Origin: an uncultured Bifidobacterium sp. | GTDB taxonomy: Bacteria; Bacteroidota; Bacteroidia; UKL13-3 | Reading direction: 5' to 3' | DNA length: 64,000 nt | Assembly (NCBI GenBank): GCA_964442045.1 | Contig: CAYTWI010000004.1 | Coordinates: 2,273-66,272 of the forward strand | Shown: positions 6,317-51,306 of the stretch, one piece after another | Numbering within the stretch: the stretch's first letter is position 1 | Layout: each line of letters starts with the position of its first letter | Translations under genes and position numbers: made by a program | The notes under the pieces: generated by a model | The model's database searches: none | Seen by the model: the letters and a program-made list of their open reading frames with translations, nothing else | What the model was told of the DNA's origin: nothing

Positions 6317-6886
6317 TTATAAATGAATCAATGTAAAGTCCAGTTTCTGGGCAAATGTTTTATAATAGGTTCTTATATATGCTTCAACCCTGCTTACATC
6401 TAAAAACTCCTGAAACAAATCGAGTAGCAATATATCAAATGCGGAACCTTCAATAAACTTTATCTCTTTTTTAAAACCGCATACACAAAGCGCATTTGTT
6501 TTACGAAGAAACTTTTTAACCAAACGCTTGTCCGTATTTAACACATGGCATGAGCCAAAATGTATAATTTTATTCTTGCAGCTATCACCCATCATTTCAG
6601 CTAATTCATCTAAACTAACCAATTCTTTACCTATTAAAATGCTACCGGGCTTGCCATGAAAAGCCAAATAACCTATGCTATATTTTGCATAGCGTTTCAG
6701 TTGCCACTGTTGCAGGTAATACTTTAAGTTTTCACGGGTACCGCAATGCCTGTGTATATAATCTATATTCCTGTTCTCTTTTAAAAAATCAAGCGCAGCT
6801 TTAACACTATTTTGCTTCAGTAAATTAGTGTTCCAATCTCCTTCCAAACAAAATATATCTTTGTCGTATGCCTGCGCTTTTTTCAT
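6317..6886 (-). CDS. Hypothetical protein (Cys/His-rich)
   Basis: 189-aa ORF with good coding appearance. No family recognised. Confidence 0.4.
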   Translation of the reverse strand: MKKAQAYDKDIFCLEGDWNTNLLKQNSVKAALDFLKENRNIDYIHRHCGTRENLKYYLQQWQLKRYAKYSIGYLAFHGKPGSILIGKELVSLDELAEMMGDSCKNKIIHFGSCHVLNTDKRLVKKFLRKTNALCVCGFKKEIKFIEGSAFDILLLDLFQEFLDVSRVEAYIRTYYKTFAQKLDFTLIHL

Positions 6887-35545: not shown

Positions 35546-36010
35546 ATGAGTCAGCCAGATAAATTTGATATTGCCATCCTTACTATTCTTCAACAAAACT
35601 CAACCATTTCTGTAAAAGAGATTGCGGAAAAAATTGGCCTTTCAGCAACACCCACTTACGAACGTATAAGAAGGATGGAGCAGGACAAAGTAATAACTAA
35701 ATATGTAGCCTTGGTTGACAGGGAAAAAGTAGGTTTTAACCTGTTGGTGTATTGCAATATTGTTTTAAAGGAACAATCAAAAAAGGCTTTATTGAGTTTT
35801 GAAAATGTTGTTTTAAAAATTCCGGAAGTGCTTGAAGTAATCAGCATTTCAGGCACCTACGACTATATGCTTAAAATTGCAGCAAAGGATATTTCATCGT
35901 ACAATGATTTTGTGGTGAACGTAATTTCAAACATTCCAAACATTGGCCAATACCATAGCAGTATTGTTTTAAAGGAAGTGAAAAGAGAAACGGCTTACCC
36001 AGTTTTATAA
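35546..36010 (+). CDS. Lrp/AsnC family transcriptional regulator
   Basis: 154 aa with an N-terminal HTH (…LDKFDIAILTILQQNSTISVKEIAEKIGLSATPTYERIRRME…) and a C-terminal RAM domain. Confidence 0.8.
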   Translation: MSQPDKFDIAILTILQQNSTISVKEIAEKIGLSATPTYERIRRMEQDKVITKYVALVDREKVGFNLLVYCNIVLKEQSKKALLSFENVVLKIPEVLEVISISGTYDYMLKIAAKDISSYNDFVVNVISNIPNIGQYHSSIVLKEVKRETAYPVL

Positions 36011-37330
36011 GTTCGGCTTTTTTAAAATTTTAGCTAAAACCGTTTTAAACTCCCTTACAATTTTATCATTGCATAAATTACCCATACTGCCTTCATGTGT
36101 ATGGTTTATTTGTTTTGATGGTTCATAATGCCCCGCTCCTATTTTTGAAGCTACGTTTTTATAAGCATCTCTAAAGGGCACTCCACTTGTTACTTCTTTA
36201 TTCACCTCTTCTACGCTGTAAAGCAAATTGTATTGATTGTCATCCAGAATACTTTGTTTCACTTCTATATGCTCCAGCATAAAAACGGTCATTTTTAAAC
36301 AGTTTATTAATTCATCAATAGCAGGAAACAAACACTCTTTTGTCAGCTGCCAATCGCGGTGATAGCCTGATGGCAAATTATTGATTAATAAAGTAAGTTC
36401 GTTTGGCAATGCCTGAATACGGTTGCATTTGGCCCTGATTAATTCAAATACATCCGGGTTTTTTTTGTGAGGCATAATACTACTACCGGTGGTTAATGAA
36501 TCGGGAAAAGAAATAAAAGCAAATTGCTGGTTCATGTATAAGCATACATCATACGCAAACTTTGAAAGGGTGGCGGCTATGTTTGCCATAGCCATGGCTA
36601 CTATCTTTTCTGTTTTACCCCTGCTCATCTGTGCATAAACAACATTGTAATTCATGGTTTCAAATTCCATTAACCGGGTAGTAAGTGTTCGGTTAATAGG
36701 AAACGAAGACCCATAACCGGCCCCTGAACCCAATGGGTTTTTATTGCAAACGTTAAAGGCCGCAGCCAGCACTTCCAGATCATCAGTTAACGATTCAGCA
36801 TAAGCCGAAAACCACAATCCAAAAGAGGAAGGCATAGCTAACTGAAAATGTGTATAGCCCGGTAAATATTTTTCTTTGTGGGTTTCACTTAAATCAATCA
36901 ATGATTTAAAAAGCTGCTCCGTATCTTGCGCTATAGCTATAAGCTGGTGTCTGAGAAATAATTTTATATCCAGTAATACCTGGTCGTTTCTTGACCTTGC
37001 ACTGTGAATTTTTTTTCCTCCTTCGCCAATCCTTTCTGTCAATAAAAATTCAATTTGCGAATGCACATCTTCTACTCCTGCTTCAATTGTAAACTTACCC
37101 AGTTTTATTTCCTGCAGTATATCCCTTAATGTTTGATCAATTAACGTCCATTCTTCTTTGGTGAGCAAGCCCACTGTTTCCAGCATTTCGGCATGAGCCA
37201 AAGAGCCTATTACATCAAATTTTGCCAGTTGCATATCAAATGCCTTGTCGTTGCCAACAGTAAATTTTTCTATTATTTCAGCATGATCCTGAAATAATAA
37301 GTCGTCTTTTTGCCAGATTTTTTTAGTCAT
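36005..37330 (-). CDS. argH: Argininosuccinate lyase
   Basis: 441 aa fumarate-lyase superfamily with …GSSIMPHKKNPDVFE… and an ASL-specific N-terminus. Confidence 0.9.
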   Translation of the reverse strand: MTKKIWQKDDLLFQDHAEIIEKFTVGNDKAFDMQLAKFDVIGSLAHAEMLETVGLLTKEEWTLIDQTLRDILQEIKLGKFTIEAGVEDVHSQIEFLLTERIGEGGKKIHSARSRNDQVLLDIKLFLRHQLIAIAQDTEQLFKSLIDLSETHKEKYLPGYTHFQLAMPSSFGLWFSAYAESLTDDLEVLAAAFNVCNKNPLGSGAGYGSSFPINRTLTTRLMEFETMNYNVVYAQMSRGKTEKIVAMAMANIAATLSKFAYDVCLYMNQQFAFISFPDSLTTGSSIMPHKKNPDVFELIRAKCNRIQALPNELTLLINNLPSGYHRDWQLTKECLFPAIDELINCLKMTVFMLEHIEVKQSILDDNQYNLLYSVEEVNKEVTSGVPFRDAYKNVASKIGAGHYEPSKQINHTHEGSMGNLCNDKIVREFKTVLAKILKKPNL

Positions 37331-37333
37331 TTT

Positions 37334-38425
37334 TTATAACAGTTTAGAAAGCATTTTTATATACAGGTCAATCCCTTCATTTATTTCATATATAAAAATA
37401 AACTCGTTACTGCTGTGTGAGCGCAATGAATTGCCGGGGCCTATTTTTACGGAAGGAAAATTCATGACTGCCATATCGGAAGTTGTAGGGGAACCATAAG
37501 TTAATTTACCTAAACCAATACCCGCTTGTACAAAGGGGTGTTGCAGTGGTATTGATGAGGGGTTTAAGCGCATGGAACGTGGCGACACAGTACTTGAAAT
37601 ATGTTGTTGTATTATATCCAGCACTTCGCGGTTGCTGTAAACATCAGTTGTTCTTATATCAACGGTAAAATCACATCTGTCCGGAACCATATTGTGTTGA
37701 ATGCCCGATTTAATCATGGTAACATTCATATTTACTTTACCCAACATTTCAGAAACTTTAGGAAAGCGGAAAGTACTTAACCAGGCTATGTCTTTTAAAG
37801 CATTTACAATAGCGTTATCCGGATTATTATGTGCAACATGTGCAGCAGTACCCTGCGCTATGCAATCAATCACCAACAAGCCTTTTTCGGCAATGGCTAT
37901 GTTCATTTCGGTTGGCTCTCCAACAATGGCAAAATCAATTTCACCCAGTTCATCCAAAACAGATGATACTCCGTTTATGCCTGAAATTTCTTCTTCGGCT
38001 GTTGCTGAAAAAATAAAATTATATTGTAAGTTTTCTTGCTTGTAAAAGTAAAGAAAGGCAGCCAGCAAACTGACCAATGCACCACCTGCATCATTGCTAC
38101 CCAGACCAAATAACTTACCATCTTGCTCTATAGGTTCAAAAGGATTTAAAGTATAACCTGAATTGGGTTTAACGGTATCGTGGTGCGAGTTTAAAAGAAT
38201 GGTAGGCAATTGCGCATTATAGTATTTGTTCTTTGCCCAAACATTATTGCCTTTCCGAAATACGGTTATTTCCTTTTGTTGTAAATACGCTGCTATCAAA
38301 TCAGCCGATACATTTTCCGCTTTGCTAAAGGAAGGAACAGCTATTAACTGTTTCAGCAAATCAATGGCTTCATGCTTTAATACATCGGCATAAACTTTAT
38401 TATACAATAAGACTTGTTCCGACAT
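37334..38425 (-). CDS. argE: M20-family metallopeptidase, acetylornithine deacetylase-like
   Basis: 363 aa with M20 zinc-binding motifs (…NSHHDTV…, …GSNDAGGA…, …EEEISG…). It sits inside the arginine operon. Confidence 0.7.
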   Translation of the reverse strand: MSEQVLLYNKVYADVLKHEAIDLLKQLIAVPSFSKAENVSADLIAAYLQQKEITVFRKGNNVWAKNKYYNAQLPTILLNSHHDTVKPNSGYTLNPFEPIEQDGKLFGLGSNDAGGALVSLLAAFLYFYKQENLQYNFIFSATAEEEISGINGVSSVLDELGEIDFAIVGEPTEMNIAIAEKGLLVIDCIAQGTAAHVAHNNPDNAIVNALKDIAWLSTFRFPKVSEMLGKVNMNVTMIKSGIQHNMVPDRCDFTVDIRTTDVYSNREVLDIIQQHISSTVSPRSMRLNPSSIPLQHPFVQAGIGLGKLTYGSPTTSDMAVMNFPSVKIGPGNSLRSHSSNEFIFIYEINEGIDLYIKMLSKLL

Positions 38426-39194
38426 TTTTATGATTAGCTATTACGTTTAAAATATCATCGGCATGTAAAACAGCCACTGAATGTACACCATTTTTCAGTG
38501 CAGCAAAAGCAGTATCTAATTTCGGTATCATACCTTTGGAAACCATTTTATCCTTTAGCATTTGTTCGTATTTAACAGTTGAAATACTTGGTATCACAGA
38601 ACTATCATCATCTATATTGCTCATTACGCCCTTTTTCTCAAAGCAATAATTCAAATGTACTTTATACTTAGCCGACATGGCAATGGCCAATGCGCTGGCC
38701 AAAGTATCAGCATTGGTATTTAACAGTTGTCCGTTTTTATCATGCGTTATGGAGCAAAATACCGGGAGCATATTTATTTCAAGCAGGGTTGAAATAAAGG
38801 AAGTATTGATGCCCCCTTCTTCAATATCGCCCACCCATCCAAAATCGTATTTGGCATGGGTTCTTTTTTTGGCTCTTATACAATTGTTATCTGCACCTGA
38901 AAGACCAATTGCATTGCTCGAGTTGGCTTGTAACAAGGCCACCATTTTTTTATTAATCAATCCTGCATAAACCATGGTGGCTAAGTCCAGCGTACTGGCA
39001 TCAGTAATTCGTCTGCCCTCTACCATATGTTGCTCAACACCTAATTTAAAAGCCAATTCATCAACCAGTTTACCGCCACCGTGCACAATAATTTTTCTGC
39101 CCTTAATGCCTGAAACCATCGAAAGCATATGCTTAAGTTTAAGTTCATGGTTAATAATATTTCCACCTATTTTAATGATGTAGAGTGTTTGCAT
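38400..39194 (-). CDS. argB: Acetylglutamate kinase
   Basis: 264 aa amino-acid kinase fold with an N-terminus …IIKIGGNII… and …IVHGGG…. Confidence 0.85.
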   Translation of the reverse strand: MQTLYIIKIGGNIINHELKLKHMLSMVSGIKGRKIIVHGGGKLVDELAFKLGVEQHMVEGRRITDASTLDLATMVYAGLINKKMVALLQANSSNAIGLSGADNNCIRAKKRTHAKYDFGWVGDIEEGGINTSFISTLLEINMLPVFCSITHDKNGQLLNTNADTLASALAIAMSAKYKVHLNYCFEKKGVMSNIDDDSSVIPSISTVKYEQMLKDKMVSKGMIPKLDTAFAALKNGVHSVAVLHADDILNVIANHKNVGTSLIV

Positions 39195-39209
39195 AGCTTT
39201 TGGATATGA

Positions 39210-40166
39210 TTAGTTAAAATTACTTTCGATTACTTTTTTTAACACTGCCTGTGCTGCAAACAATCGGTTATTAGCCTGTTCAAGCACCAATGAATTTTTT
39301 CCGTCTAACAGTTCATCCGTTAATTCTACATTTCTGCGAACCGGCAGGCAATGCATAATTTTTGCATTGTTGCTTACAGCCAGGCTTTGTTCATGGAGTA
39401 ACCAGTCATTTGCTGTTGGAAGCATTTGTCCATATTCATGATAAGAAGACCAGTTTTTCACATACACAAAATCAGCATTTTGTAAAGCTTCTGTTTGATT
39501 ATAACATATTTGTGCACCCTTTGTAAATGACCCATCCAGCTCGTATCCGTGGGGATGTGTAATCACAAAATCAACTCCGGCATTGCACATCCATTCACTA
39601 AAAGAATTAGCTACTGCCTGTGGCAATGGTTTAATATGCGGAGCCCAGGTTAATACCACTTTGGGCTTGTATTCCTTTTTCCAGTGTTCTGTTATTGTTA
39701 TTAAATCGGCAAAACTTTGTAAGGGATGACGGGTAGCTGATTCCAAAGAAATAACAGGCACTGAACAATACTTCATAAACTGCTTCAATACTTTTTCATT
39801 GTAATCATCATCCCTGTTTACCAGAGAAGGAAAACAACGAATGCCAACTATATCGCAATACTGACTCAGCACGGCTGCTGCATCTTTAATATGCTCCACT
39901 TTATCACCATTCATAATGGCTTCCTCTTCAAACTCCCAGGCCCAGCTTTCGGCATTTACATTTAATACTATAACCTGTAAACCCAGATTTGCAGCTGCCT
40001 TTTGCGTACTTAAACGTGTTCTTAAACTTGCATTTAAAAAAACAAGACCTAATGTTTTGTTTTTACCCAAGGCATTAAACTGCATTGGGTTTTCTTTCAA
40101 TAACAATGCTTCCTGCAATAATTCGCTTATATTTTCTACATCATAAAAAGAGGTAAAGTTTTTCAT
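39210..40166 (-). CDS. argF': N-acetylornithine carbamoyltransferase (Bacteroidota-type ArgF')
   Basis: 318 aa transcarbamylase fold (…SLRTR…, …HCLP…) in an acetylated arginine pathway operon. Confidence 0.75.
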   Translation of the reverse strand: MKNFTSFYDVENISELLQEALLLKENPMQFNALGKNKTLGLVFLNASLRTRLSTQKAAANLGLQVIVLNVNAESWAWEFEEEAIMNGDKVEHIKDAAAVLSQYCDIVGIRCFPSLVNRDDDYNEKVLKQFMKYCSVPVISLESATRHPLQSFADLITITEHWKKEYKPKVVLTWAPHIKPLPQAVANSFSEWMCNAGVDFVITHPHGYELDGSFTKGAQICYNQTEALQNADFVYVKNWSSYHEYGQMLPTANDWLLHEQSLAVSNNAKIMHCLPVRRNVELTDELLDGKNSLVLEQANNRLFAAQAVLKKVIESNFN

Positions 40167-40188
40167 GTATTCAATTCTTATTTTATAA

Positions 40189-41334
40189 TTAAGCGTGCTG
40201 CAATTGTTTACTCATTACACGCTTAAATGCCTCTAAAAAAATATCGGCCTCCTGTTTAGTAATATTCAGTGCAGGTAAAATGCGTAAGGTATTTTTGTTG
40301 GCTGATGAACCGGTAAATATTTTATGCTGCATTAGCAATTCATTTCTGATAGCCGCACAGGGTACTTCCAACTCTATTCCAATCATTAAACCCACGCCTC
40401 TTACTTCTTTAATACCTGCTGTTTCCTTTAATGCCTGTACTAAATACCGGCCCATATTCCGTGCATTCTCCACCAGGTTTTCCTGTTTCATTATATCGAG
40501 CACAGCAATAGCCGCCACACAGGCTAAGTAGTTGCCACCAAAGGTTGTTCCCAACATGCCGGGTTTGGCTTTAATAGCAGGATGAATTAATACACCGGCC
40601 ACAGGAAAACCATTACCCATACCTTTTGCAATGGTTATTATATCAGGTTTTACATAAGCATATTGATGCGCAAAAAATTGACCACTGCGCCCGTAGCCTG
40701 ATTGTATCTCATCGCAAATCATTAAGGCGCCCCACTTTTCGCACAATGACTTTATTTTTTGCAGAAACAACAGCGAGGGAATGTTAACTCCACCAACACC
40801 CTGAATTCCTTCAATAATGACAGCCGCAATTTCATGATTCAAAAAAACCTGATTCAATGCCTCCGTATTATTCCACTCACAAAAAACAATGTTGTCTGTT
40901 TCGTTTACGGGCGCTATAATAGACTTATCGTCTGTTGCAGCTACAGCAGCTGATGTACGGCCATGAAACGATTGGGAGAAAGCAACTATTTTTCTTTTTC
41001 CGGTATGAAACGAGGCCAGTTTAAAAGCATTCTCATTAGCCTCCGCACCCGAGTTACACATAAACAAATGGTAATCATTATAACCACTTTGCTCGCCTAA
41101 TTTTTGAGCCAGCTCTTGCTGCAAGGGAATTTTTACTGAATTAGAGTAAAAGCCTATTTGCTGTAATTGGGTGCTGATTTTTTCAATATAATAAGGGTGT
41201 GAATGACCAATAGAAATAACAGCATGGCCACCATATAAATCTAAATACTTCTCCCCTTTTTCATCCCATATATAAATGCCTTCCGCCCTTACCGGAACAA
41301 TATCAAACAGTGGATAAACATTAAATAATTCCAT
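40189..41334 (-). CDS. argD: Acetylornithine aminotransferase (class III PLP aminotransferase)
   Basis: 381 aa with …LMICDEIQSGYGRSG… and the Lys of …TIAKGMGNG…. Confidence 0.85.
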   Translation of the reverse strand: MELFNVYPLFDIVPVRAEGIYIWDEKGEKYLDLYGGHAVISIGHSHPYYIEKISTQLQQIGFYSNSVKIPLQQELAQKLGEQSGYNDYHLFMCNSGAEANENAFKLASFHTGKRKIVAFSQSFHGRTSAAVAATDDKSIIAPVNETDNIVFCEWNNTEALNQVFLNHEIAAVIIEGIQGVGGVNIPSLLFLQKIKSLCEKWGALMICDEIQSGYGRSGQFFAHQYAYVKPDIITIAKGMGNGFPVAGVLIHPAIKAKPGMLGTTFGGNYLACVAAIAVLDIMKQENLVENARNMGRYLVQALKETAGIKEVRGVGLMIGIELEVPCAAIRNELLMQHKIFTGSSANKNTLRILPALNITKQEADIFLEAFKRVMSKQLQHA

Positions 41335-41337
41335 ATA

Positions 41338-42321
41338 CTAAAATGCGGTGGCTTTTAATTTTAAACCTGTTGTTTCTGCCAACCCAAATAACAGATTCAT
41401 GTTTTGTACGGCTTGTCCTGAGGCACCTTTCAACAGGTTATCAATAACGCTTGCTATTAATAATTTGTTACCATGCTTTTCTATATGCAGTAAACACTTA
41501 TTGGTGTTCACCACTTGCTTTAAATCAATATTATCTTTACTGATAAAAACAAAAGGATGCTCCGCGTAAAAATTTTCATATAGGGCAATAGCCTCTTCAA
41601 TATCCATATCACAATCCAGGTAACAGCTTGCAAAAATTCCTCTGGCAAAACTGCCTCGCTGCGGAATAAAGTGTATGTTATTGTCAAACCCGTTTTGCAG
41701 TTGCTTAATGCTTTGTTTTATTTCGTGCAAATGCTGGTGTTCAAAGGGCTTATAAAAAGAAAGGTTATTGTTTCGCCAGCTGTAATGCGATGTAGTACTT
41801 AATGTTTGTCCTGCACCCGTTGTGCCTGTTGTGGCAGAAACATGTATGGCGCTTTTAAGTAATTTGCTTTTTGCCAAAGGGAGCAATGCCAGTTGAATAC
41901 AAGTGGCAAAGCAACCCGGATTGGCAACGAATTGAGCCGCTTTAATTACATCGCGATTCAATTCAGGTAAACCATATACAAACAAACTAACGGTTTTCAA
42001 TACAATATCTTTTAATCTAAAATCAGCACTCAAATCAATTATCTTAATGGTATCAGCTATTTTATTTTCATCCAGCCATTTTTTTGCTTCGCCATGAGCC
42101 ACACATAAAAAAAGCACCTCTATATTTTGCGATATAGTATCAGAAAATTTTAAATCGGTGTCACCAATTAAATCAGTATGTATTTCATATATAAACTTGT
42201 GGCTATTGCTTTTACTGTGTACAAAAGCAATTTCAGCCCCGCTATGGTTAAGCAGTAAACGAATTAACTCACCACCCGTATAACCGGCTCCGCCAATAAT
42301 TCCAACCTTTATTTTTTTCAT
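41338..42321 (-). CDS. argC: N-acetyl-gamma-glutamyl-phosphate reductase
   Basis: 327 aa with an N-terminus …VGIIGGAGYTGGELIRLL… and the catalytic Cys context …NPGCFAT…. Confidence 0.9.
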   Translation of the reverse strand: MKKIKVGIIGGAGYTGGELIRLLLNHSGAEIAFVHSKSNSHKFIYEIHTDLIGDTDLKFSDTISQNIEVLFLCVAHGEAKKWLDENKIADTIKIIDLSADFRLKDIVLKTVSLFVYGLPELNRDVIKAAQFVANPGCFATCIQLALLPLAKSKLLKSAIHVSATTGTTGAGQTLSTTSHYSWRNNNLSFYKPFEHQHLHEIKQSIKQLQNGFDNNIHFIPQRGSFARGIFASCYLDCDMDIEEAIALYENFYAEHPFVFISKDNIDLKQVVNTNKCLLHIEKHGNKLLIASVIDNLLKGASGQAVQNMNLLFGLAETTGLKLKATAF

Positions 42322-43517
42322 GCCTGTGTATTTACCTGATGAAAAATAGAAGCCGCATTACCAAATATTTTTGAAAATCCTTTTACATCATCGCCACTCC
42401 ATGTATTATTCATTTCGCCATAACTGCCAAACTGAGCCGCCATTAAATCGTTGGGCGACTCGATGCCATTAATAACAAAACGATAAGGAGCCAGTGTAAC
42501 AAAAACTTTTCCGCTTACCTTTTTTTGAGTACCCTCAAAAAACGATTCTATATTGCGCATTACAGGGTCTAAAAACTGTCCTTCATGCAGCCAGTTACCA
42601 TACCAGTCAGCCAATTGATCTTTTAAAAACAATTGCCATTTGGTAAGCACATGTTTCTCCAATGTATAATGTGCTTTTAAAATAATTAAAGGAGCAGCCG
42701 CTTCAAAACCTACCCTGCCTTTAATGCCAATAATGGTATCGCCTACATGAATATCTCTGCCTATAGCATAAGGAGCAGCCATTGCCTGCAAACACTGTAT
42801 AGCCTGAACCGGATTGTCAAACAGCTGTTCGTTTACGCCCACCAGTTCACCTTCATTAAAAGTAAGTACTGCCTGCGCAGGTGTTTCCTTTGTTAAGGGA
42901 GTTGGAAAAGCCTCCTCCGGTAAATAATTATTGGATGTTAGCGTTTCCATACCACCTACCGAAGTACCCCATAAACCTTTGTTAACAGAATACTTTGCTT
43001 TCTCAAAATTCATGTCAACACCATGCGTTTTCAAAAATTGTATTTCTTCCTCGCGCGATAGCTTCATATCACGTATAGGAGTTATAATCTCCATATCCGG
43101 AATCAGTATATTGAATATCATATCAAACCTGACCTGATCATTACCTGCGCCTGTGCTTCCATGCGCTACACAGGCAGCACCTGTTTCTTTTGCATAGTTG
43201 GCAATGGCCGTTGCCTGGTTAATACGTTCGGCACTTACCGACAAAGGATACGTTTTGTTTTTGAGTACATTTCCAAATATCAGATACCTGATACAGTTGG
43301 TATAAAAACGATTGGTTTCATCAATACAGGTAAAAGAGGCTGCACCAAGTGCCAAGGCCCTGCTTTCTATTTCCTTTACCTCATCAGCAGTAAACCCGCC
43401 TGTATTAACCGTTACGGCATGTACCTCTAAATTTTTTATTTTCGATAAATAAACAGCGCAGTACGATGTATCTAATCCGCCACTGAATGCCAGTACTACT
43501 TTTTCCTTTTTCATCAT
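42318..43517 (-). CDS. argG: Argininosuccinate synthase
   Basis: 399 aa with a PP-loop …VVLAFSGGLDTS… and the ASS core. Confidence 0.9.
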   Translation of the reverse strand: MMKKEKVVLAFSGGLDTSYCAVYLSKIKNLEVHAVTVNTGGFTADEVKEIESRALALGAASFTCIDETNRFYTNCIRYLIFGNVLKNKTYPLSVSAERINQATAIANYAKETGAACVAHGSTGAGNDQVRFDMIFNILIPDMEIITPIRDMKLSREEEIQFLKTHGVDMNFEKAKYSVNKGLWGTSVGGMETLTSNNYLPEEAFPTPLTKETPAQAVLTFNEGELVGVNEQLFDNPVQAIQCLQAMAAPYAIGRDIHVGDTIIGIKGRVGFEAAAPLIILKAHYTLEKHVLTKWQLFLKDQLADWYGNWLHEGQFLDPVMRNIESFFEGTQKKVSGKVFVTLAPYRFVINGIESPNDLMAAQFGSYGEMNNTWSGDDVKGFSKIFGNAASIFHQVNTQA

Positions 43518-44101
43518 GCTGTTTCAACCATGGGGTAAGCGTGAACAAATTCCTTTGTTTTCAATAAAGGATCAAAAAGCATGGCTGTACAAAGGCAGTT
43601 CTTTTTGCCTTTGCTTTGCAGTATTTCATAATTCACACAGCTTTTACAACCTTCCCAAAAATTTTCATCGGTGGTTATTTCGGCATATACCACAGGCTCA
43701 TAACCCATTTCCGAATTTATTTTCATAACGGCCGAACTGGTAGTTAAACCAAATACTTTGGCGTTTGGAAACTTTACTTTCGCTAACTTAAAAATCTCCC
43801 GTTTAATGGTTCGTGCCAATCCTTTTTCGCGAAACGGGGCAGCTACTATTAATCCGGAGTTAGAAACATACTGGTCGTTTTGCCACGATTCTATATAACA
43901 AAACCCTGCCCACTCACCCGTATGGGTTAAAGCAATGATAGCCTTGCCATCCAGCATTTTTTGAATAATCTGGGCCGGACTGCGTTTTGAAATGCCCGTA
44001 CCACGTTGTTTCGCTGACGATTCCATTTCACGGCTTATTTGTGGTGCAAATTGAATATGATAGTCGTTTGCCTTTATCACTTCAAATGACAAGTTACTCA
44101 T
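43514..44101 (-). CDS. GNAT family N-acetyltransferase, likely the operon's N-acetylglutamate-forming enzyme
   Basis: 195 aa. The acetyl-CoA binding motif …APFREKGLARTI… (R/Q-x-x-G-x-G/A) and its position at the head of argGCDF'BEH fit a GNAT. Confidence 0.65.
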   Translation of the reverse strand: MSNLSFEVIKANDYHIQFAPQISREMESSAKQRGTGISKRSPAQIIQKMLDGKAIIALTHTGEWAGFCYIESWQNDQYVSNSGLIVAAPFREKGLARTIKREIFKLAKVKFPNAKVFGLTTSSAVMKINSEMGYEPVVYAEITTDENFWEGCKSCVNYEILQSKGKKNCLCTAMLFDPLLKTKEFVHAYPMVETA

Positions 44102-47209: not shown

Positions 47210-47947
47210 TTAAATATCAGTGGGATAAATTCTTTTTTCAACCATCCATGTAATAGCTTTTACTATTTCATCTTCTGAAAATTTTTGTTTATGAGAAGAC
47301 CATGCATACACTTTTTTAACAATTAGATTATTACTAAAAATCTCTTTCTTATTAAGAACTTCAGTCCAACATGCATAGATAGTCGCTATTAACTCAATCT
47401 CCTGTGTTTTAGTTTTTCTAAATGTCTCAATAAGCAACTCTATTCCTAAAAGATATTCTGAATAATATTTTTCATACCATTCTTTATGGCCACCTATATT
47501 TTCTAATGGTTTATACTTTGGAAAAGTATCCGTTGAATTAAATTCAAACCATTTGTGTTCCTTAAACTGTTTATCCAAAGACCTCATCAAAACAGGATCA
47601 TATGGCCCCATTGCTTGTTTTAGAAAATTTACATGAATAGGCATTTTCTCAACTTGTTGACATAAATATATTAGTTTTTGAAGTTTTAAATGTCCAATCG
47701 TCCATTCATCTTTCAGCCTATAAACTATTTCAGCAGCAAGAACTGTTCTTTTATGGTAATCAATACGTGTAATAGAAGTATTTGATTTCCTTATTGACTT
47801 AAGTATTTTTTCTGGATTGATTGCATTAGCATTTGCTTCATATGAATAATCCTTATAAATTTCATTAAAAAGCCTCAATTCTTCTGAATTTTCGGGCAAC
47901 CCATAACCTAATGAGTTAAAAAAACTATCTAAATCAATCTCTTTCAT
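47210..47947 (-). CDS. Panacea (DUF4065, SocA-like antitoxin) domain protein
   Basis: 245 aa. The central …GHLKLQKLIYLCQQ…AMGPYDPVLMRSL… matches the Panacea consensus (h-LKLQKLlYyaq … GPv.P.ly). It has an N-terminal ~80 aa and a C-terminal ~100 aa of unknown function. Its ATG overlaps the upstream sigma gene's stop (ATGA). Confidence 0.6.
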   Translation of the reverse strand: MKEIDLDSFFNSLGYGLPENSEELRLFNEIYKDYSYEANANAINPEKILKSIRKSNTSITRIDYHKRTVLAAEIVYRLKDEWTIGHLKLQKLIYLCQQVEKMPIHVNFLKQAMGPYDPVLMRSLDKQFKEHKWFEFNSTDTFPKYKPLENIGGHKEWYEKYYSEYLLGIELLIETFRKTKTQEIELIATIYACWTEVLNKKEIFSNNLIVKKVYAWSSHKQKFSEDEIVKAITWMVEKRIYPTDI

Positions 47948-48600
47948 TTAGTCACACTCATTTTTAAAATTTCTAACCCTTGATTTATTTTGTCAATTGC
48001 TTCCTTTTTATAAGCTCTAATAGTAGTTTGCTTTATATCACCTAAATAATGTCTCAGCTCCGCTTGAAGTTTTTTAGGTAAGTTACACCCAAGTTTTTCA
48101 TACGCTTTATAAGTTAGATAAACAACTCTATGACTGTCGGGCAAAGACTGTATAATACTATATTTAAGTTTGTTTTCAGCATCCAGCCTATCTATAGGAA
48201 TATCTGGCATATTTACAATAATTGTTTCGTTACCATCATAATAATGTCCAAGTCTTTTTTTCTCTTGCTGTCTATAATAATTAATTAACTCATTTTTACT
48301 TATCCTATATAAATATATCTGAAAAGATTCATCAATTGTTTTTCCTTTAGCTTTTAAAGGGTTGAAATCAAAAGTACCAGTTTGAGCATATGCTTTAAAT
48401 GTATTTTCTGCTATAATTTCTGCTACGTCAGGCCCATGTCCATATCGTTTACAGCTAATTTCACATTTTTTCAATAAATCTTCTCTGAATCTATGAACCA
48501 GAATGATAAAGGCACTATCTCTATCAGGCTCCAATTTATTTTGAAACAACCTAATAAGTTCTTCTGAACTTTTGCTATTTAATATTTCAAGGCTATTCAT
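47944..48600 (-). CDS. Sigma-70 family (ECF-like) RNA polymerase sigma factor
   Basis: 218 aa with a region-2-like N-terminus (…FIILVHRFREDLLKK…) and a region-4 HTH at the C-terminus (…RVVYLTYKAYEKLGCNLPKKLQAELRHYLGDIKQTTIRAYKKEAIDKI…). AT-rich. Confidence 0.6.
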   Translation of the reverse strand: MNSLEILNSKSSEELIRLFQNKLEPDRDSAFIILVHRFREDLLKKCEISCKRYGHGPDVAEIIAENTFKAYAQTGTFDFNPLKAKGKTIDESFQIYLYRISKNELINYYRQQEKKRLGHYYDGNETIIVNMPDIPIDRLDAENKLKYSIIQSLPDSHRVVYLTYKAYEKLGCNLPKKLQAELRHYLGDIKQTTIRAYKKEAIDKINQGLEILKMSVTK

Positions 48601-48802
48601 ACTTATACATAAAAGCGTTGGTCACGCTTTTCGTAGTCAATTAGAGAACTCAAACATAAGCATTAAATACAAAATAATAAAAGTGATAAAAAAGAACAGT
48701 AATTCACAAATAATTCAAGGCTATAGTGCTAAGAATCAACAGCAGGTGATGCCTATACACCTTAATGTTATAAGCTATTTTTCCACTATAACTATTTTAT
48801 TT

Positions 48803-48958
48803 ATGAATATACAAAAAACATCGAATAATCAAGTTCAAATATGCAAAAACGACCTCTGTATTAACGCTGAAGGTAAATATGCAGAAGCCATTTCCAAAGC
48901 CATCATAGTTATGATGCTTTTATATGGTGCGGCAGCTTTGATTAAAGCTATCCGTTAG
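48803..48958 (+). CDS. Small peptide (51 aa; MNIQKTSNNQVQICKNDLCINAEGKYAEAISKAIIVMMLLYGAAALIKAIR), hypothetical
   Basis: Divergent from the sigma gene. It ends directly before a hairpin (GGTGAGTA-TTCT-TACTCACC + TTTCTC) at 48966-48985 that would terminate a + strand transcript. The C-terminal half is hydrophobic. Confidence 0.25.
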   Translation: MNIQKTSNNQVQICKNDLCINAEGKYAEAISKAIIVMMLLYGAAALIKAIR

Positions 48959-49018: not shown

Positions 49019-49354
49019 ATGAATAATCCAAAATTTACAATTTACAAAAGCACAGTTAATTCTCAATACTATTATCGCTTACGCGCTAAAAACGGAGAAA
49101 TCATCTTAAATGGTGAAGGTTATACAACCAAACAAGGTTGTCTTAACGGAATCGCATCTGTCAAACAAAATGCTCCATATGACATCAGATATGACCGTAA
49201 AGATAGTTACAGCAACTATACGTTCAATCTAAAATCTTCAAATGGAGAAATCATTGGAAGAAGCGAAAACTACACAAGTTCCGCTTCTAGAGAGAATGGA
49301 ATTGCTGCAGTAAAAGCTGATGCTCCTAACGCTCCAACCGAAGACTTAACTTAA
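49019..49354 (+). CDS. YegP/DUF1508 (UPF0339) tandem-domain protein
   Basis: 111 aa with two repeats of the F.(I/L)(Y/K)..(S/N)…G.YY..L(K/R)(A/S).NGE(I)I (YegP) pattern. Confidence 0.7.
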   Translation: MNNPKFTIYKSTVNSQYYYRLRAKNGEIILNGEGYTTKQGCLNGIASVKQNAPYDIRYDRKDSYSNYTFNLKSSNGEIIGRSENYTSSASRENGIAAVKADAPNAPTEDLT

Positions 49355-49382
49355 AAATATTAAATTTAAGTCTACTCTAAAT

Positions 49383-49416
49383 GCAAAAAAGGCTTACATT
49401 TTCATGTAAGCCTTTT
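49383..49416 (+). terminator. Rho-independent terminator (AAAAAAGGCTTACAT-TTTC-ATGTAAGCCTTTTTTAT)
   Basis: Perfect 9-bp stem with a T6 tract, right after the yegP-like stop. Confidence 0.55.
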
Positions 49417-49435
49417 TTATGAATCAATATTCCCC

Positions 49436-49480
49436 CATACAACCTCCCACTATCAATAATCTCTACTTGCTTACCCATGT
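49436..49480. repeat. Diverged duplicate of the 3' terminus of the DEAD-box helicase gene (direct repeat partner of 50172-50215)
   Basis: CCCCCATACAACCTCCCACTATCAATAATCTCTACTTGCTTACCCAT versus CCCTCTTACATCCGCTCACTATCAATAATCTCTACCTGTTTACCCAT at 50172-50215. Its reverse complement encodes …NMGKQVEIIDSGRL… versus the authentic …KMGKQVEIIDSERM*. Confidence 0.55.
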
Positions 49481-49631
49481 TTATAGGGTACTTTGTTCCT
49501 CAGGCAGCAATTAAATACGCATGGGTGTATTTATACCAGTGGGTAAAACAAGCCACACAAAGCAATGAATACAGGGGTATTGAAGCCTCAGCAATCAATC
49601 GGGATGTGTAGCATCTTTATTGCATAGGTGT

Positions 49632-50150
49632 ATGACAATGATTAGACAAATAATTTATTTATGCCTGCTTGTAAGTGCCATTTCATGCATGCCGGATGAG
49701 GAAAGAATAGTCAATGACGATACATTGAATGAAACAGATAAACATTTTTTAAGGGAAGCAGGATTGGCAAACATGGCGGAGCTTGATGTAGCACAGTTAG
49801 CCATGACAGATGCCAACCACGACTCCGTTCAAATGTTTGCCGTGATGATGAACCGCGACCACCTGCAAGCCTATGATGAACTGCAAACACTGGCATTGAA
49901 TTTCGGCATCACTGTTTCGCAGGAGCCCGATGAAAACCATAAACAAATAAAACAACAACTGATGGGACAATCAGGGCCGGCCTTTGACAGCAACTATATG
50001 GAGAAACAGATAACTGACCATGAAAATACCATCAGTTTATTTGAAACAGAAGTAAACGGTGGGCAAAACCAGCAGGTAATGTTTTATGCCAATAAATACC
50101 TGCCTGGTCTCAGGTTGCGTTTAGCAAAAGCACAAAACATGGAAATGTAA
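49632..50150 (+). CDS. DUF4142-like (ferritin-like) predicted periplasmic/outer-membrane protein
   Basis: MTMIRQIIYLCLLVSAISC (lipoprotein-like signal) followed by two helical repeats (…DKHFLREAGLANMAELDVAQLA… / …DSNYMEKQITDHENTISLFE…). The track ORF starts at TTG 49620. Confidence 0.55.
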   Translation: MTMIRQIIYLCLLVSAISCMPDEERIVNDDTLNETDKHFLREAGLANMAELDVAQLAMTDANHDSVQMFAVMMNRDHLQAYDELQTLALNFGITVSQEPDENHKQIKQQLMGQSGPAFDSNYMEKQITDHENTISLFETEVNGGQNQQVMFYANKYLPGLRLRLAKAQNMEM

Positions 50151-50169
50151 TGGCATATCATAAGCCCTC

Positions 50170-51306
50170 TTACATCCGCTCACTATCAATAATCTCTACC
50201 TGTTTACCCATCTTTTTTTGGATAATACCAAAATGATGTAGCTCGCTCGGACTCACTAAGGAAATAGCATCGCCTGTATTACCTGCGCGGCCTGTTCTGC
50301 CAATGCGGTGTATATAATCTTTAGGCGAGCGGGGCAATTCATAATTAATTACAAAAGGCAGCGAAAGTATATCAATACCCCTTGCCATTAAATCGGTAGC
50401 TACCAATACCCGCAGCTTGCCTGTTTTAAACAAATGTAAAGCTTCTGTTCTGCCACCCTGGCTTTTTTTGCTGTGAATGGCTCTTGCATCTATATTGTTT
50501 TTAAGCAGTTTATTTACAATGGCATCGGCCTGGTAAACAGAAGAGGCAAACACCAATACTTGTTTCATGTCGTGGTGATTAATGAGGTAACGTAAAAACG
50601 GCCCTTTCTTATCTTCGGATACAATATAAGCCAGCTGGTTTATCAGCTCCAGCGAGTCTTCCTCTTCGGCTATTTTAATCACAACCGGGTTGTGCAACAT
50701 CAACTGGTGTATCAGTTGCACATCATCGTTTAAAGTAGCCGACAATAATATATTCTGGCGTTTGGCAGGCAACAGGGCCAGTATTTTATTTACTTCTTCT
50801 TTAAAGCCTAGGTTAAGCATCTTATCGGCTTCGTCCAATACCAGTGTTTCAATACCCGATACATGTACCGCATTGGAATCAATCAACTCCAATAACCTGC
50901 CGGGTGTAGCCACCAGTATATTTACGCCCTGCAAGGCCATCATTTGCGGGTTAATGGAAACACCACCGTATACGGCCAGTGTTTTAACGGGCTCCGTCAA
51001 TGCTTTACTAAATGTATGGAATACCTCTTTTACCTGTTCGGCCAGCTCGCGCGTAGGTACCAACACCAATATATGGGCATGGCGGTTTTTAAGTTTGGCT
51101 GCCGGCTTGACCTGCATTAAAAGCGGCAATACATAGCTGGCTGTTTTACCCGCTCCGGTTTTGGCAATACCCAATACATCGTTTTTATTCAATATAGCCG
51201 GTATGGCTGTTTCCTGTATAGGTGTGGGTATAGAAAACTCCTGTTTTTCCAGCGCCTTTAACAAGGCAGGCGAAAGGCCTAAGGATGTAAATGACGTATG
51301 ACTCAT
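50170..51306 (-). CDS. DEAD-box ATP-dependent RNA helicase
   Basis: 378 aa with a Q-motif …PTPIQ…, Walker A AKTGAGKT, DEAD (VLDEADKML), SAT, and motif VI HRIGRTGRAG. Confidence 0.88.
   Translation of the reverse strand: MSHTSFTSLGLSPALLKALEKQEFSIPTPIQETAIPAILNKNDVLGIAKTGAGKTASYVLPLLMQVKPAAKLKNRHAHILVLVPTRELAEQVKEVFHTFSKALTEPVKTLAVYGGVSINPQMMALQGVNILVATPGRLLELIDSNAVHVSGIETLVLDEADKMLNLGFKEEVNKILALLPAKRQNILLSATLNDDVQLIHQLMLHNPVVIKIAEEEDSLELINQLAYIVSEDKKGPFLRYLINHHDMKQVLVFASSVYQADAIVNKLLKNNIDARAIHSKKSQGGRTEALHLFKTGKLRVLVATDLMARGIDILSLPFVINYELPRSPKDYIHRIGRTGRAGNTGDAISLVSPSELHHFGIIQKKMGKQVEIIDSERM

Follow-up and report, generated by a model that had tools for sequence, protein, structure and literature searches.

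Does a gene for a sigma-like protein that overlaps a gene for an antitoxin-like protein encode a toxin with its antidote, or a transcription factor with an unusual antagonist? This question is raised by a locus in a 64,000-nucleotide stretch of contig CAYTWI010000004.1 (assembly GCA_964442045.1, positions 2,273 to 66,272 of the forward strand), hereafter the window, which is filed under an uncultured Bifidobacterium sp. and placed by GTDB in the Bacteroidota. Here the sigma-like gene, which we call B, is followed by its partner gene, A, and a small open reading frame (ORF), C51, starts on the opposite strand 202 nt upstream of B, leaving an intergenic region at 48601-48802 (Table 1). The original prediction had named A a Panacea-domain protein and had proposed either that B is its toxin partner or that A is an atypical anti-sigma factor; the coordinates of the three ORFs and the ATGA overlap that joins B to A were confirmed in the sequence. 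This overlap suggests that B and A are translationally coupled, and overlapping or abutting B-A junctions are also found in related loci. We consider it fairly probable that B-A is a cytoplasmic sigma/anti-sigma-type switch that controls divergent neighbouring cargo genes. This view draws on the fold of B, which is that of an extracytoplasmic function (ECF, group 4) sigma factor, on the sigma-first gene order with an overlapping partner, on the strict co-occurrence of the two genes and on their regulator-like position. It draws further on the modular build of A, a cis element that follows B, known sigma/anti-sigma precedents and the retention of all invariant residues in the window proteins.

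B and A form a strict module

Scans of species-representative genomes and metagenomes yielded 102 loci. In 57 of these, a B-family gene directly precedes a full-length A homolog that stands alone, with the two genes overlapping or abutting, and the pairing holds even where B is only ~23% identical. B is absent from all of the ~40 loci in which the core domain of A is fused to HsdS, the specificity subunit of Type I restriction enzymes, and two of the 102 loci are ambiguous (L043, at a contig end, and L084, which is unclear). All B-A pairs from named organisms belong to Bacteroidota, and no B-A gene fusion was found among 149 A-family representatives. B-A is a strict module. In one Sporocytophaga metagenome-assembled genome (L001, 5341-6011), B appears to be split in different frames beside an intact A, which reflects a frameshift or an assembly error.

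Predicted fold of the sigma-like protein

Matches of B to curated hidden Markov models (HMMs) are weak: Pfam Sigma70_r2 (PF04542) is matched at E 3e-3 over residues 90-113 only, scoring 17.7 bits where the gathering score is 24; TIGR02985 is matched at E 1.7e-5, far below its cut-off; and TIGR02937 at E 1.3e-4 (21.6 bits against a cut-off of 42.9). A B family profile, built from 23 homologs, matches the SigW, SigH and RpoE entries of the PDB at E 6e-4 to 0.04, and its alignments to SigW and to RNA polymerase sigma factor 8z6g_B span both domains. When the AlphaFold2 (AF2) model of B, which has a mean per-residue confidence (pLDDT) of 91.5, was compared with the PDB by Foldseek, 25 of the 26 top matches were ECF sigma chains (1or7, 8z6g, 5wuq and 6kop among them), most with a probability of 0.96-1.0, and the remaining one was the sigma subunit of an RNA-guided transcription complex. 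TM-scores were 0.75-0.79 for entries that hold sigma-2 only and 0.60 for the sigma-4 entry 3hug. The modelled protein has the two-domain fold of sigma-2 plus sigma-4 without region 3, retains the signature motifs of regions 2.2-2.4 and 4, and keeps all 19 family-invariant residues. From these models and profiles, we conclude that B is a divergent yet complete ECF-type sigma factor, and the earlier sigma-70-like label is supported by a clear fold match despite weak HMM matches. No homolog of B was found in phage records.

Immune operons face B-A in other genomes

We surveyed the divergent cargo of 44 other B-A loci with usable upstream DNA; it nearly always consists of genes with an established or candidate role against phage. 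Cyclic-oligonucleotide-based anti-phage signalling systems (CBASS) occupy this position in 27 loci, ubiquitin-like (Ubl/E1/JAB) sets in five, Pycsar-like operons in four, metallo-beta-lactamase-fold (MBL) plus E2 operons in three and PDC-M36A in one, and four have small or short cargo, so that an immune-type operon lies across from B-A in 40 of the 44. The CBASS cargo comprises a CD-NTase with an E2 domain, a 2TM-NUDIX effector and an LRAT-like protein, a CD-NTase with an HNH-SAVED effector, or a CD-NTase with a patatin; other cargo types are PycC with PycTM and an E2-like protein, an MBL-fold protein with an E2-like protein, and sets of multiubiquitin, ThiF/E1 and JAB. Both of the nearest relatives of the window pair (A identity 70% and 65%) face CBASS. 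B-A loci thus occupy the position of the 'Cap'-type regulators, directly upstream of, and usually divergent from, diverse immune operons; in the window itself this place holds only C51 and a YegP-like gene.

Small proteins recur at the same place. In 16 sampled loci, with cargo of any type, the divergent side opens with a gene for a basic protein of 57 aa (e.g. L007, 5066-5239, minus strand), which matches the PADLOC candidate PDC-S38 at E 2e-31. A 138-aa LRAT/NlpC-like protein (e.g. L006, 4646-5062, minus strand) also recurs beside B-A, with CBASS-NUDIX, CBASS-Cap5 and Pycsar-like cargo, as does PDC-S38. These PDC-S38-like and LRAT/NlpC-like proteins may be part of a regulatory or E2-linked layer rather than of one effector system.

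An N-terminal module that accompanies the sigma factor

The partner protein consists of an N-terminal module and a larger core. The N-module carries the motif S-x-G-[FY]-G-[FL]-P-x(4)-E-L-x(2)-F ... I-[DN]-P-x-K-I, of which G14, P18, F27 and I48 are invariant across the A family; every family-invariant residue is kept in the window protein. In the AF2 model of A (pLDDT 83), residues 1-60 are poorly defined, with low pLDDT when modelled alone. No anti-sigma domain, zf-HC2 or FecR domain was matched by Pfam or NCBIfam in A or in the scanned neighbouring ORFs, in agreement with the earlier remark that a FecR-type anti-sigma factor is missing, and A has no transmembrane segment.

The most distant B homologs of the first search show what stays constant in the partner. 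P0153 and P0154 (33-37% identity) face Multi_ubiq plus ThiF and CD-NTase plus Cap15, respectively, and each is followed by a 117-aa protein and a Peptidase_M78, with no A. The same three-gene variant, a B-like sigma factor, a 116-117-aa protein and an ImmA/IrrE (M78) peptidase, lies divergent from CBASS-Cap15, Multi_ubiq plus ThiF or Pycsar at L147 (3265-5084), L148 (2517-4291) and L149 (4887-6703, on Chryseobacterium plasmid pA2BH1), and the RefSeq annotation of the last, beside Pycsar, reads sigma-70 family sigma factor, hypothetical protein and ImmA/IrrE family metallo-endopeptidase. The 116-117-aa proteins match no Pfam family, helix-turn-helix (HTH) families included. Residues 3-58 of A have a homologous counterpart in the N-terminal half of the 117-aa proteins (hhalign probability 96.3%, E 1.6e-9). 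By these comparisons, it is the N-terminal module of A that goes with the sigma factor in every case, and the part behind it can be exchanged, being either a tail paired with a CapP-like protease or a DarG-C-terminal-domain (DarG-CTD)/Panacea-like core. A constant N-module with a swapped downstream part is the pattern expected if the N-module is an anti-sigma peptide and the rest a signal-input device.

The core has its closest relatives in DarG and in restriction enzymes. Residues 56-232 of A match positions 160-335 of the 338-position NCBIfam DarG model (NF048014) at E 2.4e-9, with 36.9 bits against a cut-off of 250. Among PADLOC models, the core (residues ~55-245) matches the C-terminal part of DarG (E 5e-14), the C-terminal end of a Type I methyltransferase model (E 9e-30) and the C-terminal ends of two S-subunit models. 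In the PDB, the A model has one meaningful neighbour: the DarG chain of the DarTG complex from M. tuberculosis, 7yk3_D (probability 1.0, E 0.026). Of the combination that marks DarG, a macrodomain, a DarT-binding domain and an adjoining darT, A has no macrodomain by Pfam, and the window ORFs include no DarT-like neighbour.

The Panacea label given in the original prediction was too strong. The window A has no match to PF13274 (SocA_Panacea) even at E<=10, and only 3 of 26 A-family members match this model, the best at E 0.018. Remote homology is suggested when A is compared with the family of the validated PanA of Burkholderia prophage phi52237 (PMC8832971; our locus L057), all collected members of which belong to PF13274. 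Here hhalign gave a probability of 71.9% (E 3.4e-5, 100 columns) for the A1 profile and 75.4% (E in the 2-3e-5 range, 130 columns) for a broader A-core profile, and the KLQKL and GP[VY] motifs line up between the A core and PanA. As judged from profile comparison, the A core seems to be a remote relative of Panacea and is no member of that family, its close relatives being DarG-CTD and the HsdS extension.

Does this kinship make B a growth-arresting toxin, acting for example by hijacking RNA polymerase, and A a Panacea-type antitoxin, in an addiction or abortive-infection module of its own for which the immune operons are mere defence-island neighbours? The relationship of the A core to the DarG C-terminal domain, which according to the literature binds and inhibits DarT, and more remotely to Panacea would fit, as would the overlapping genes, the operator-like repeat upstream (see below) and the defence contexts; Panacea antitoxins are also known to neutralise many unrelated toxins (PMC8832971). 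However, in the validated phi52237 pair panA precedes panT, opposite to the arrangement of A and B, and the part of A that covaries with B is the non-Panacea N-module, which is also found without a Panacea-like core. The fixed divergent orientation beside variable cargo, with a cis element in the shared intergenic region, is moreover the pattern of a regulator, and PADLOC has no model that matches B. We regard a toxin-antitoxin pair as improbable. Between the two roles first suggested for the locus, the comparative evidence thus speaks against the toxin and for the anti-sigma factor, given the gene order, the strict co-conservation, the regulator position beside immune operons and an N-module that tracks the sigma factor.

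Beyond these pairs, an exhaustive search with the A-core profile returned 1676 cluster representatives at E<=1e-3. The top matches are mostly 600-800 aa long, Methylase_S was found in 26 of 43 sampled, and the C-terminal domain shared by these 43 proteins is covered by no Pfam family. S subunits of Type I restriction enzymes often carry the core as an extension at their C terminus (L025-L044, L049-L052 and L083-L099; e.g. L028, 4657-6762), and in these HsdS fusions the match to the A profile begins only at positions 21-63, except in L099 (position 9). The gene directly 3' of the HsdS-fused core varies, encoding RhuM, an AAA_21 ATPase, an SMC_N-like ATPase, SIR2_2, a KwaB-like or a DUF4145/MtlR-like protein. 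The HsdS-borne core may tether such other effectors to the restriction enzyme, much as PrrC is associated with EcoprrI.

A conserved element upstream of B

A near-invariant 16-mer, CCAACGCTTTTGCGTA, lies 6-18 nt upstream of the B start and is present, exactly or with at most two mismatches, in 29 distinct sequences, and it is kept although the B proteins are only 42-63% identical to the window B. To its left stands a degenerate inverted copy, TACGCAAAAGCGTT. In the window, the right arm is CCAACGCTTTTATGTA (48606-48621), with two mismatches to the 16-mer, the degenerate left arm is TACGAAAAGCGTG (48623-48635), and the element ends 5 nt upstream of the B ATG. More distant B-A pairs have analogous inverted repeats, mostly with the core GTAACGCTT and with the variants GTCACGCTT (L024) and GTAACACTT (L045), at spacers of 11 to ~22 nt; between subfamilies the spacer length ranges from 3 to ~22 nt. 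An inverted-repeat element also precedes the B homologs of L147 and L148, which are without the A core. As far as these sequences go, the cis element travels with the sigma factor B and not with the A core.

Over the 14 possible pairs between the arms, 84.6% of cells are complementary, and compensated change is nearly nil, with only one pair (three cells) altered on both sides. Variation is confined to the left arm and goes uncompensated, while the right arm is invariant, which points to a DNA recognition site and speaks against an RNA hairpin or attenuator in the B leader; Rfam likewise gave no match above threshold over 46.8-49.6 kb. An ECF -35/-10 geometry was also sought in the element, and no register suits all subgroups. 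No second copy of the 16-mer was found in front of the cargo or elsewhere in the window, apart from one chance match with three mismatches at 6521. The idea of a phage-borne site or decoy was rejected: of 40 exact matches in viral contigs none adjoins an A or B homolog, and we judge their number, without a computation, to be about chance level.

The shape of the element raises the alternative that B is never a sigma factor and instead uses its sigma-4 helix-turn-helix, alone or with A, to bind the inverted repeat as a dimer and silence both divergent promoters, in the way of CapH, CapW or a toxin-antitoxin autorepressor. Relief would then come when a signal reaches A or, in the three-gene variant, the M78 protease. 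The repeat with its two AACGC-type cores and its high complementarity suits such an operator, and so do the symmetric G/C swaps in both arms of L017 and L147. In addition, the known Cap regulators are repressors (PMC13373217), and B falls under the ECF HMM cut-offs. Yet a plain repressor would have no use for the complete sigma-2 domain with its region 2.2-2.4 motifs that B retains. A degenerate left arm beside an invariant right arm also fits poorly, the range of spacers is awkward for a single fixed dimer geometry, and in the protease-coupled CalpL/T/S system it is a sigma factor that cleavage of the partner activates. On balance, we think a repressor complex unlikely, though less so than a toxin-antitoxin pair.

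Probable cargo in the window

C51 encodes a CxxxxC motif followed by a C-terminal transmembrane helix, and no family match was found in the libraries scanned, Pfam, NCBIfam and PADLOC among them. It has a 53-aa homolog in L077 (3162-3001; 45% identity over 42 aa, E 1.6e-6 in the local database) that sits at the same relative position, after a PDC-S38-like gene. C51 is a real, conserved gene and probably a cargo gene of B-A; no sign was seen of the toxin or bacteriocin-like identity once suggested for it. A similar peptide in L046 turned out to be a look-alike with a non-significant BLAST score, so that only the L077 homolog counts. Cargo that consists of small proteins only, as in the window, was seen at two B-A loci: L046 (4258-5179, Putridiphycobacter roseus), with a basic 53-aa ORF, the CxxxxC-plus-transmembrane peptide, a DUF1883 protein and a zinc-ribbon-like 70-aa ORF; and L077 (2064-3411), with PDC-S38, the C51 homolog, a 74-aa weakly YjzC-like protein (E 0.05, far below cut-off) and a 204-aa membrane protein. 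Six nucleotides past the end of C51 begins a stem-loop of 10 bp (dG -12.7 kcal/mol, z -4.8, 0 of 200 shuffles as stable), so the hairpin noted earlier is there; a strict scan for intrinsic terminators did not call it, as no T-run follows.

The next gene on the same strand encodes a YegP-like protein that matches Pfam DUF1508 (E 1.5e-37) in two stretches. Since YegP homologs follow capK-capS regulators in 57 of 443 cases (PMC13373217), a YegP cargo has precedent, and it is possible that this gene is a second cargo gene of B-A.

No immune operon was recognised in the window, and so the module could be an orphan remnant that has lost its immune cargo and regulates nothing, with C51 and YegP as unrelated neighbours. 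The housekeeping flanks (arg operon, DEAD-box helicase, tpiA), the two mismatches in the otherwise invariant 16-mer and the lack of a YegP gene beside B-A in the other sampled loci are what one would expect of a remnant. Both ORFs are nevertheless intact with all invariant residues present, the L077 homolog shows that small-protein cargo recurs with B-A, and YegP is recurrent cargo of another regulator family. We hold a remnant to be very unlikely; because A and B keep all invariant residues, the window module is probably functional.

A proposed switch

We propose the following mechanism. B, an ECF-like sigma factor, would recognise the conserved element in the short B-cargo intergenic region and drive transcription of the cargo, and probably of its own operon too. 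A would be made in a fixed ratio to B through translational coupling, and its ~55-residue N-module would hold B inactive. The Panacea/DarG-CTD-like core of A would receive a signal or act as a clamp, so that infection or stress leads to the release of B or the destruction of A. For this core there are several options: a second clamp on B, as DarG is on DarT, a sensor of phage or damage, or a proteolytic adaptor like SocA. The usual cargo in Bacteroidota would be an abortive-infection-type immune operon (CBASS, Pycsar-like, MBL plus E2 or ubiquitin-like), which in the window would be reduced to a 51-aa membrane protein, perhaps with the YegP-like gene.

It is important to point out what weighs against this switch. 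B stays below all curated HMM cut-offs. The imperfect inverted repeat that makes up the element would be more usual as the operator of a dimeric repressor than as a -35/-10 promoter; no consistent promoter geometry can be derived from it, the ATG follows just 5 nt past it in the window subgroup, and its spacer varies between subfamilies. The window itself is without a recognised immune operon and its 16-mer carries mismatches, and the absence of YegP beside the other sampled B-A pairs means that a regulation of YegP here may be coincidental. Several loci of the cargo census are near-identical, so that there are fewer independent observations than the counts state. Finally, we infer all functions of the module from sequence, including the binding of A to B, the action of B with RNA polymerase, the direction of regulation and the signal.

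A more specific version, in which A is the first member of a new class of soluble anti-sigma factors that joins a sigma-binding N-module to a Panacea/DarG-CTD clamp that either perceives infection or DNA damage directly or hands B over to a protease, is a tentative proposal that we find less probable than the switch as such.

Relation to known systems

In rpoE-rseA and sigW-rsiW operons, the sigma gene comes first and is followed by an overlapping partner. RpoE-RseA, SigW-RsiW and SigE-ChrR share with B-A this order and the co-translated antagonist, and the B model matches these sigma structures; A differs from their antagonists in having neither an anti-sigma/zf-HC2 match nor a transmembrane segment, and B lies below the curated ECF thresholds. 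ECF-type sigma factors that are held by an anti-sigma factor and control, or are controlled by, an immune system are known from DdvS-DdvA of Myxococcus xanthus (PMC11506125) and from CalpS-CalpT-CalpL of type III CRISPR. However, DdvA is a large transmembrane anti-sigma factor with TPR-CHAT domains and CalpT is cleaved by a SAVED-Lon protease, whereas A is a soluble protein of 245 aa with another N-terminal module and a DarG-CTD/Panacea-like core.

Among regulators of immune operons, CapH+CapP resembles B-A in its layout, with a set of two or three regulator genes placed upstream of CBASS and related operons in divergent orientation, and a CapP-like M78/ImmA-type peptidase accompanies the distant B homologs. 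Unlike CapH+CapP, the window has no M78 peptidase or helix-turn-helix repressor, and the 116-117-aa proteins beside B homologs show no Pfam HTH and share the A N-module instead. Lau et al. (2022; bioRxiv 10.1101/2022.04.27.489752) reported 24 capH/capP systems encoded with a sigma-70-family factor, without further analysis and without mention of an A-type partner with a DarG-CTD/Panacea-like core; our literature search found no published description of such a partner. CapK+CapS and CapW/BrxR (PMC13373217) have the same genomic position and the same range of cargo (CBASS, Bub/Bil-type ubiquitin-like, MBL), and CapK+CapS also shares the YegP cargo seen in the window. Their proteins, a kinase with a STAS-wHTH protein and WYL repressors, are unrelated to B and A, and they are DNA-damage-responsive repressors, whereas the DNA-binding component of B-A is sigma-like.

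Antitoxin systems offer the other comparison. PanA-PanT and SocAB (PMC8832971) are linked to A by the remote profile similarity between PanA and the A core, and both are partner-binding domains with many partners; SocA acts as a proteolytic adaptor that delivers SocB to a protease (PMC8832971). A differs from PanA in leaving PF13274 unmatched, in the reversed gene order and in a partner that is a sigma factor with no toxin domain, and the partner-specific part of A seems to be the N-module rather than the core. DarG of DarTG (PDB 7yk3) provides the closest relative of the A core in sequence and fold and is described in the literature as a direct binder and inhibitor of DarT; A lacks both the macrodomain and a darT gene nearby, and its score to the DarG model is far below the cut-off. 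Compared with all of these systems, what would be new in B-A is the control of immune operons by a pair of sigma/anti-sigma type in which the antagonist carries an antitoxin-type fold. In what it observed at this locus, the original prediction was largely right, apart from the strength of its Panacea label; the association with anti-phage operons elsewhere, the conserved cis element and YegP as recurrent cargo of such regulators (PMC13373217) go beyond it.

Genomic setting of the locus

Table 1. Positions in the window of the B-A locus and its associated features.
Feature	Position	Strand	Description
A	47210..47947	-	245-aa ORF
B	47944..48600	-	218-aa ORF, predicted divergent ECF-type sigma-70 family protein with sigma-2 and sigma-4 domains
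ATGA overlap of A start (ATG 47947-47945) and B stop (TGA 47946-47944)	47944..47947	-	Read from the sequence
C51	48803..48958	+	51-aa ORF, divergent from B-A
Stem-loop 3' of C51	48965..48987	+	10 bp, from folding computation
YegP-like gene	49019..49354	+	Two DUF1508 repeats (Pfam), same strand as C51
A N-terminal module, residues 1-58	47774..47947	-	Proposed sigma-partner (anti-sigma) peptide
A core domain, residues ~60-245	47213..47770	-	Helical; DarG-C-terminal-domain-like, remotely Panacea-like; KLQKL and GPYDP motifs
Cis element, right and left arm	48606..48635	-	Conserved 16-mer and degenerate inverted arm

The module lies in the AT-rich islet described earlier, with a GC content of 0.29-0.31 across 47-49 kb and 0.37-0.45 in the flanks, and Pfam bears out the named islet neighbours as a WG-repeat protein (WG_beta_rep), an NTF2-like protein of the SnoaL-like type (SnoaL_2) and the DUF1508/YegP-like protein. 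The wider surroundings hold an arginine-biosynthesis operon, tpiA and genes for a DEAD-box helicase and a desaturase; the setting of B-A in the window is an ordinary chromosomal one and no defence island. The arginine-biosynthesis run (36005-44101, minus strand), directly upstream of the islet, is complete, and its genes, assigned by eye from the translations only, are argH, argE, argB, argF-like, argD, argC, argG and an acetyltransferase gene. At the islet edge, a 56-nt direct repeat with 82% identity (49427-49482 and 50160-50215) looks like an insertion or duplication scar. The DEAD-box helicase gene (50170..51306, minus strand) has left a relic of its 3' end in the left copy, both copies encode ...MGKQVEIIDS..., and the 733 bp between the repeat starts hold a 176-aa lipoprotein-like ORF (49620..50150) of higher GC content. 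Sub-threshold Rfam matches at 49379-49497 on the minus strand (Thr_leader, E 0.035; STnc430, E 0.22) overlap this helicase relic and are probably due to chance.

Implications

How cell-killing immune operons are silenced and switched on is an active question. If the proposed switch is correct, Bacteroidota would have a regulator of their own for these operons, a dedicated sigma factor with interchangeable antagonists, and the Panacea/DarG antitoxin fold would be linked to transcription control. The locus also offers a compact and testable cis element, the 16-mer, and in the window a minimal natural case with an output of one or two small genes. Restriction enzymes may in turn be coupled to other defence effectors by the large, unnamed family of domains that Type I HsdS subunits carry. 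Should the more specific version hold, an antitoxin fold would have been recruited to gate the transcription of CBASS, Pycsar and ubiquitin-like operons across Bacteroidota, and on HsdS this fold would serve to hold other effectors at Type I restriction enzymes.

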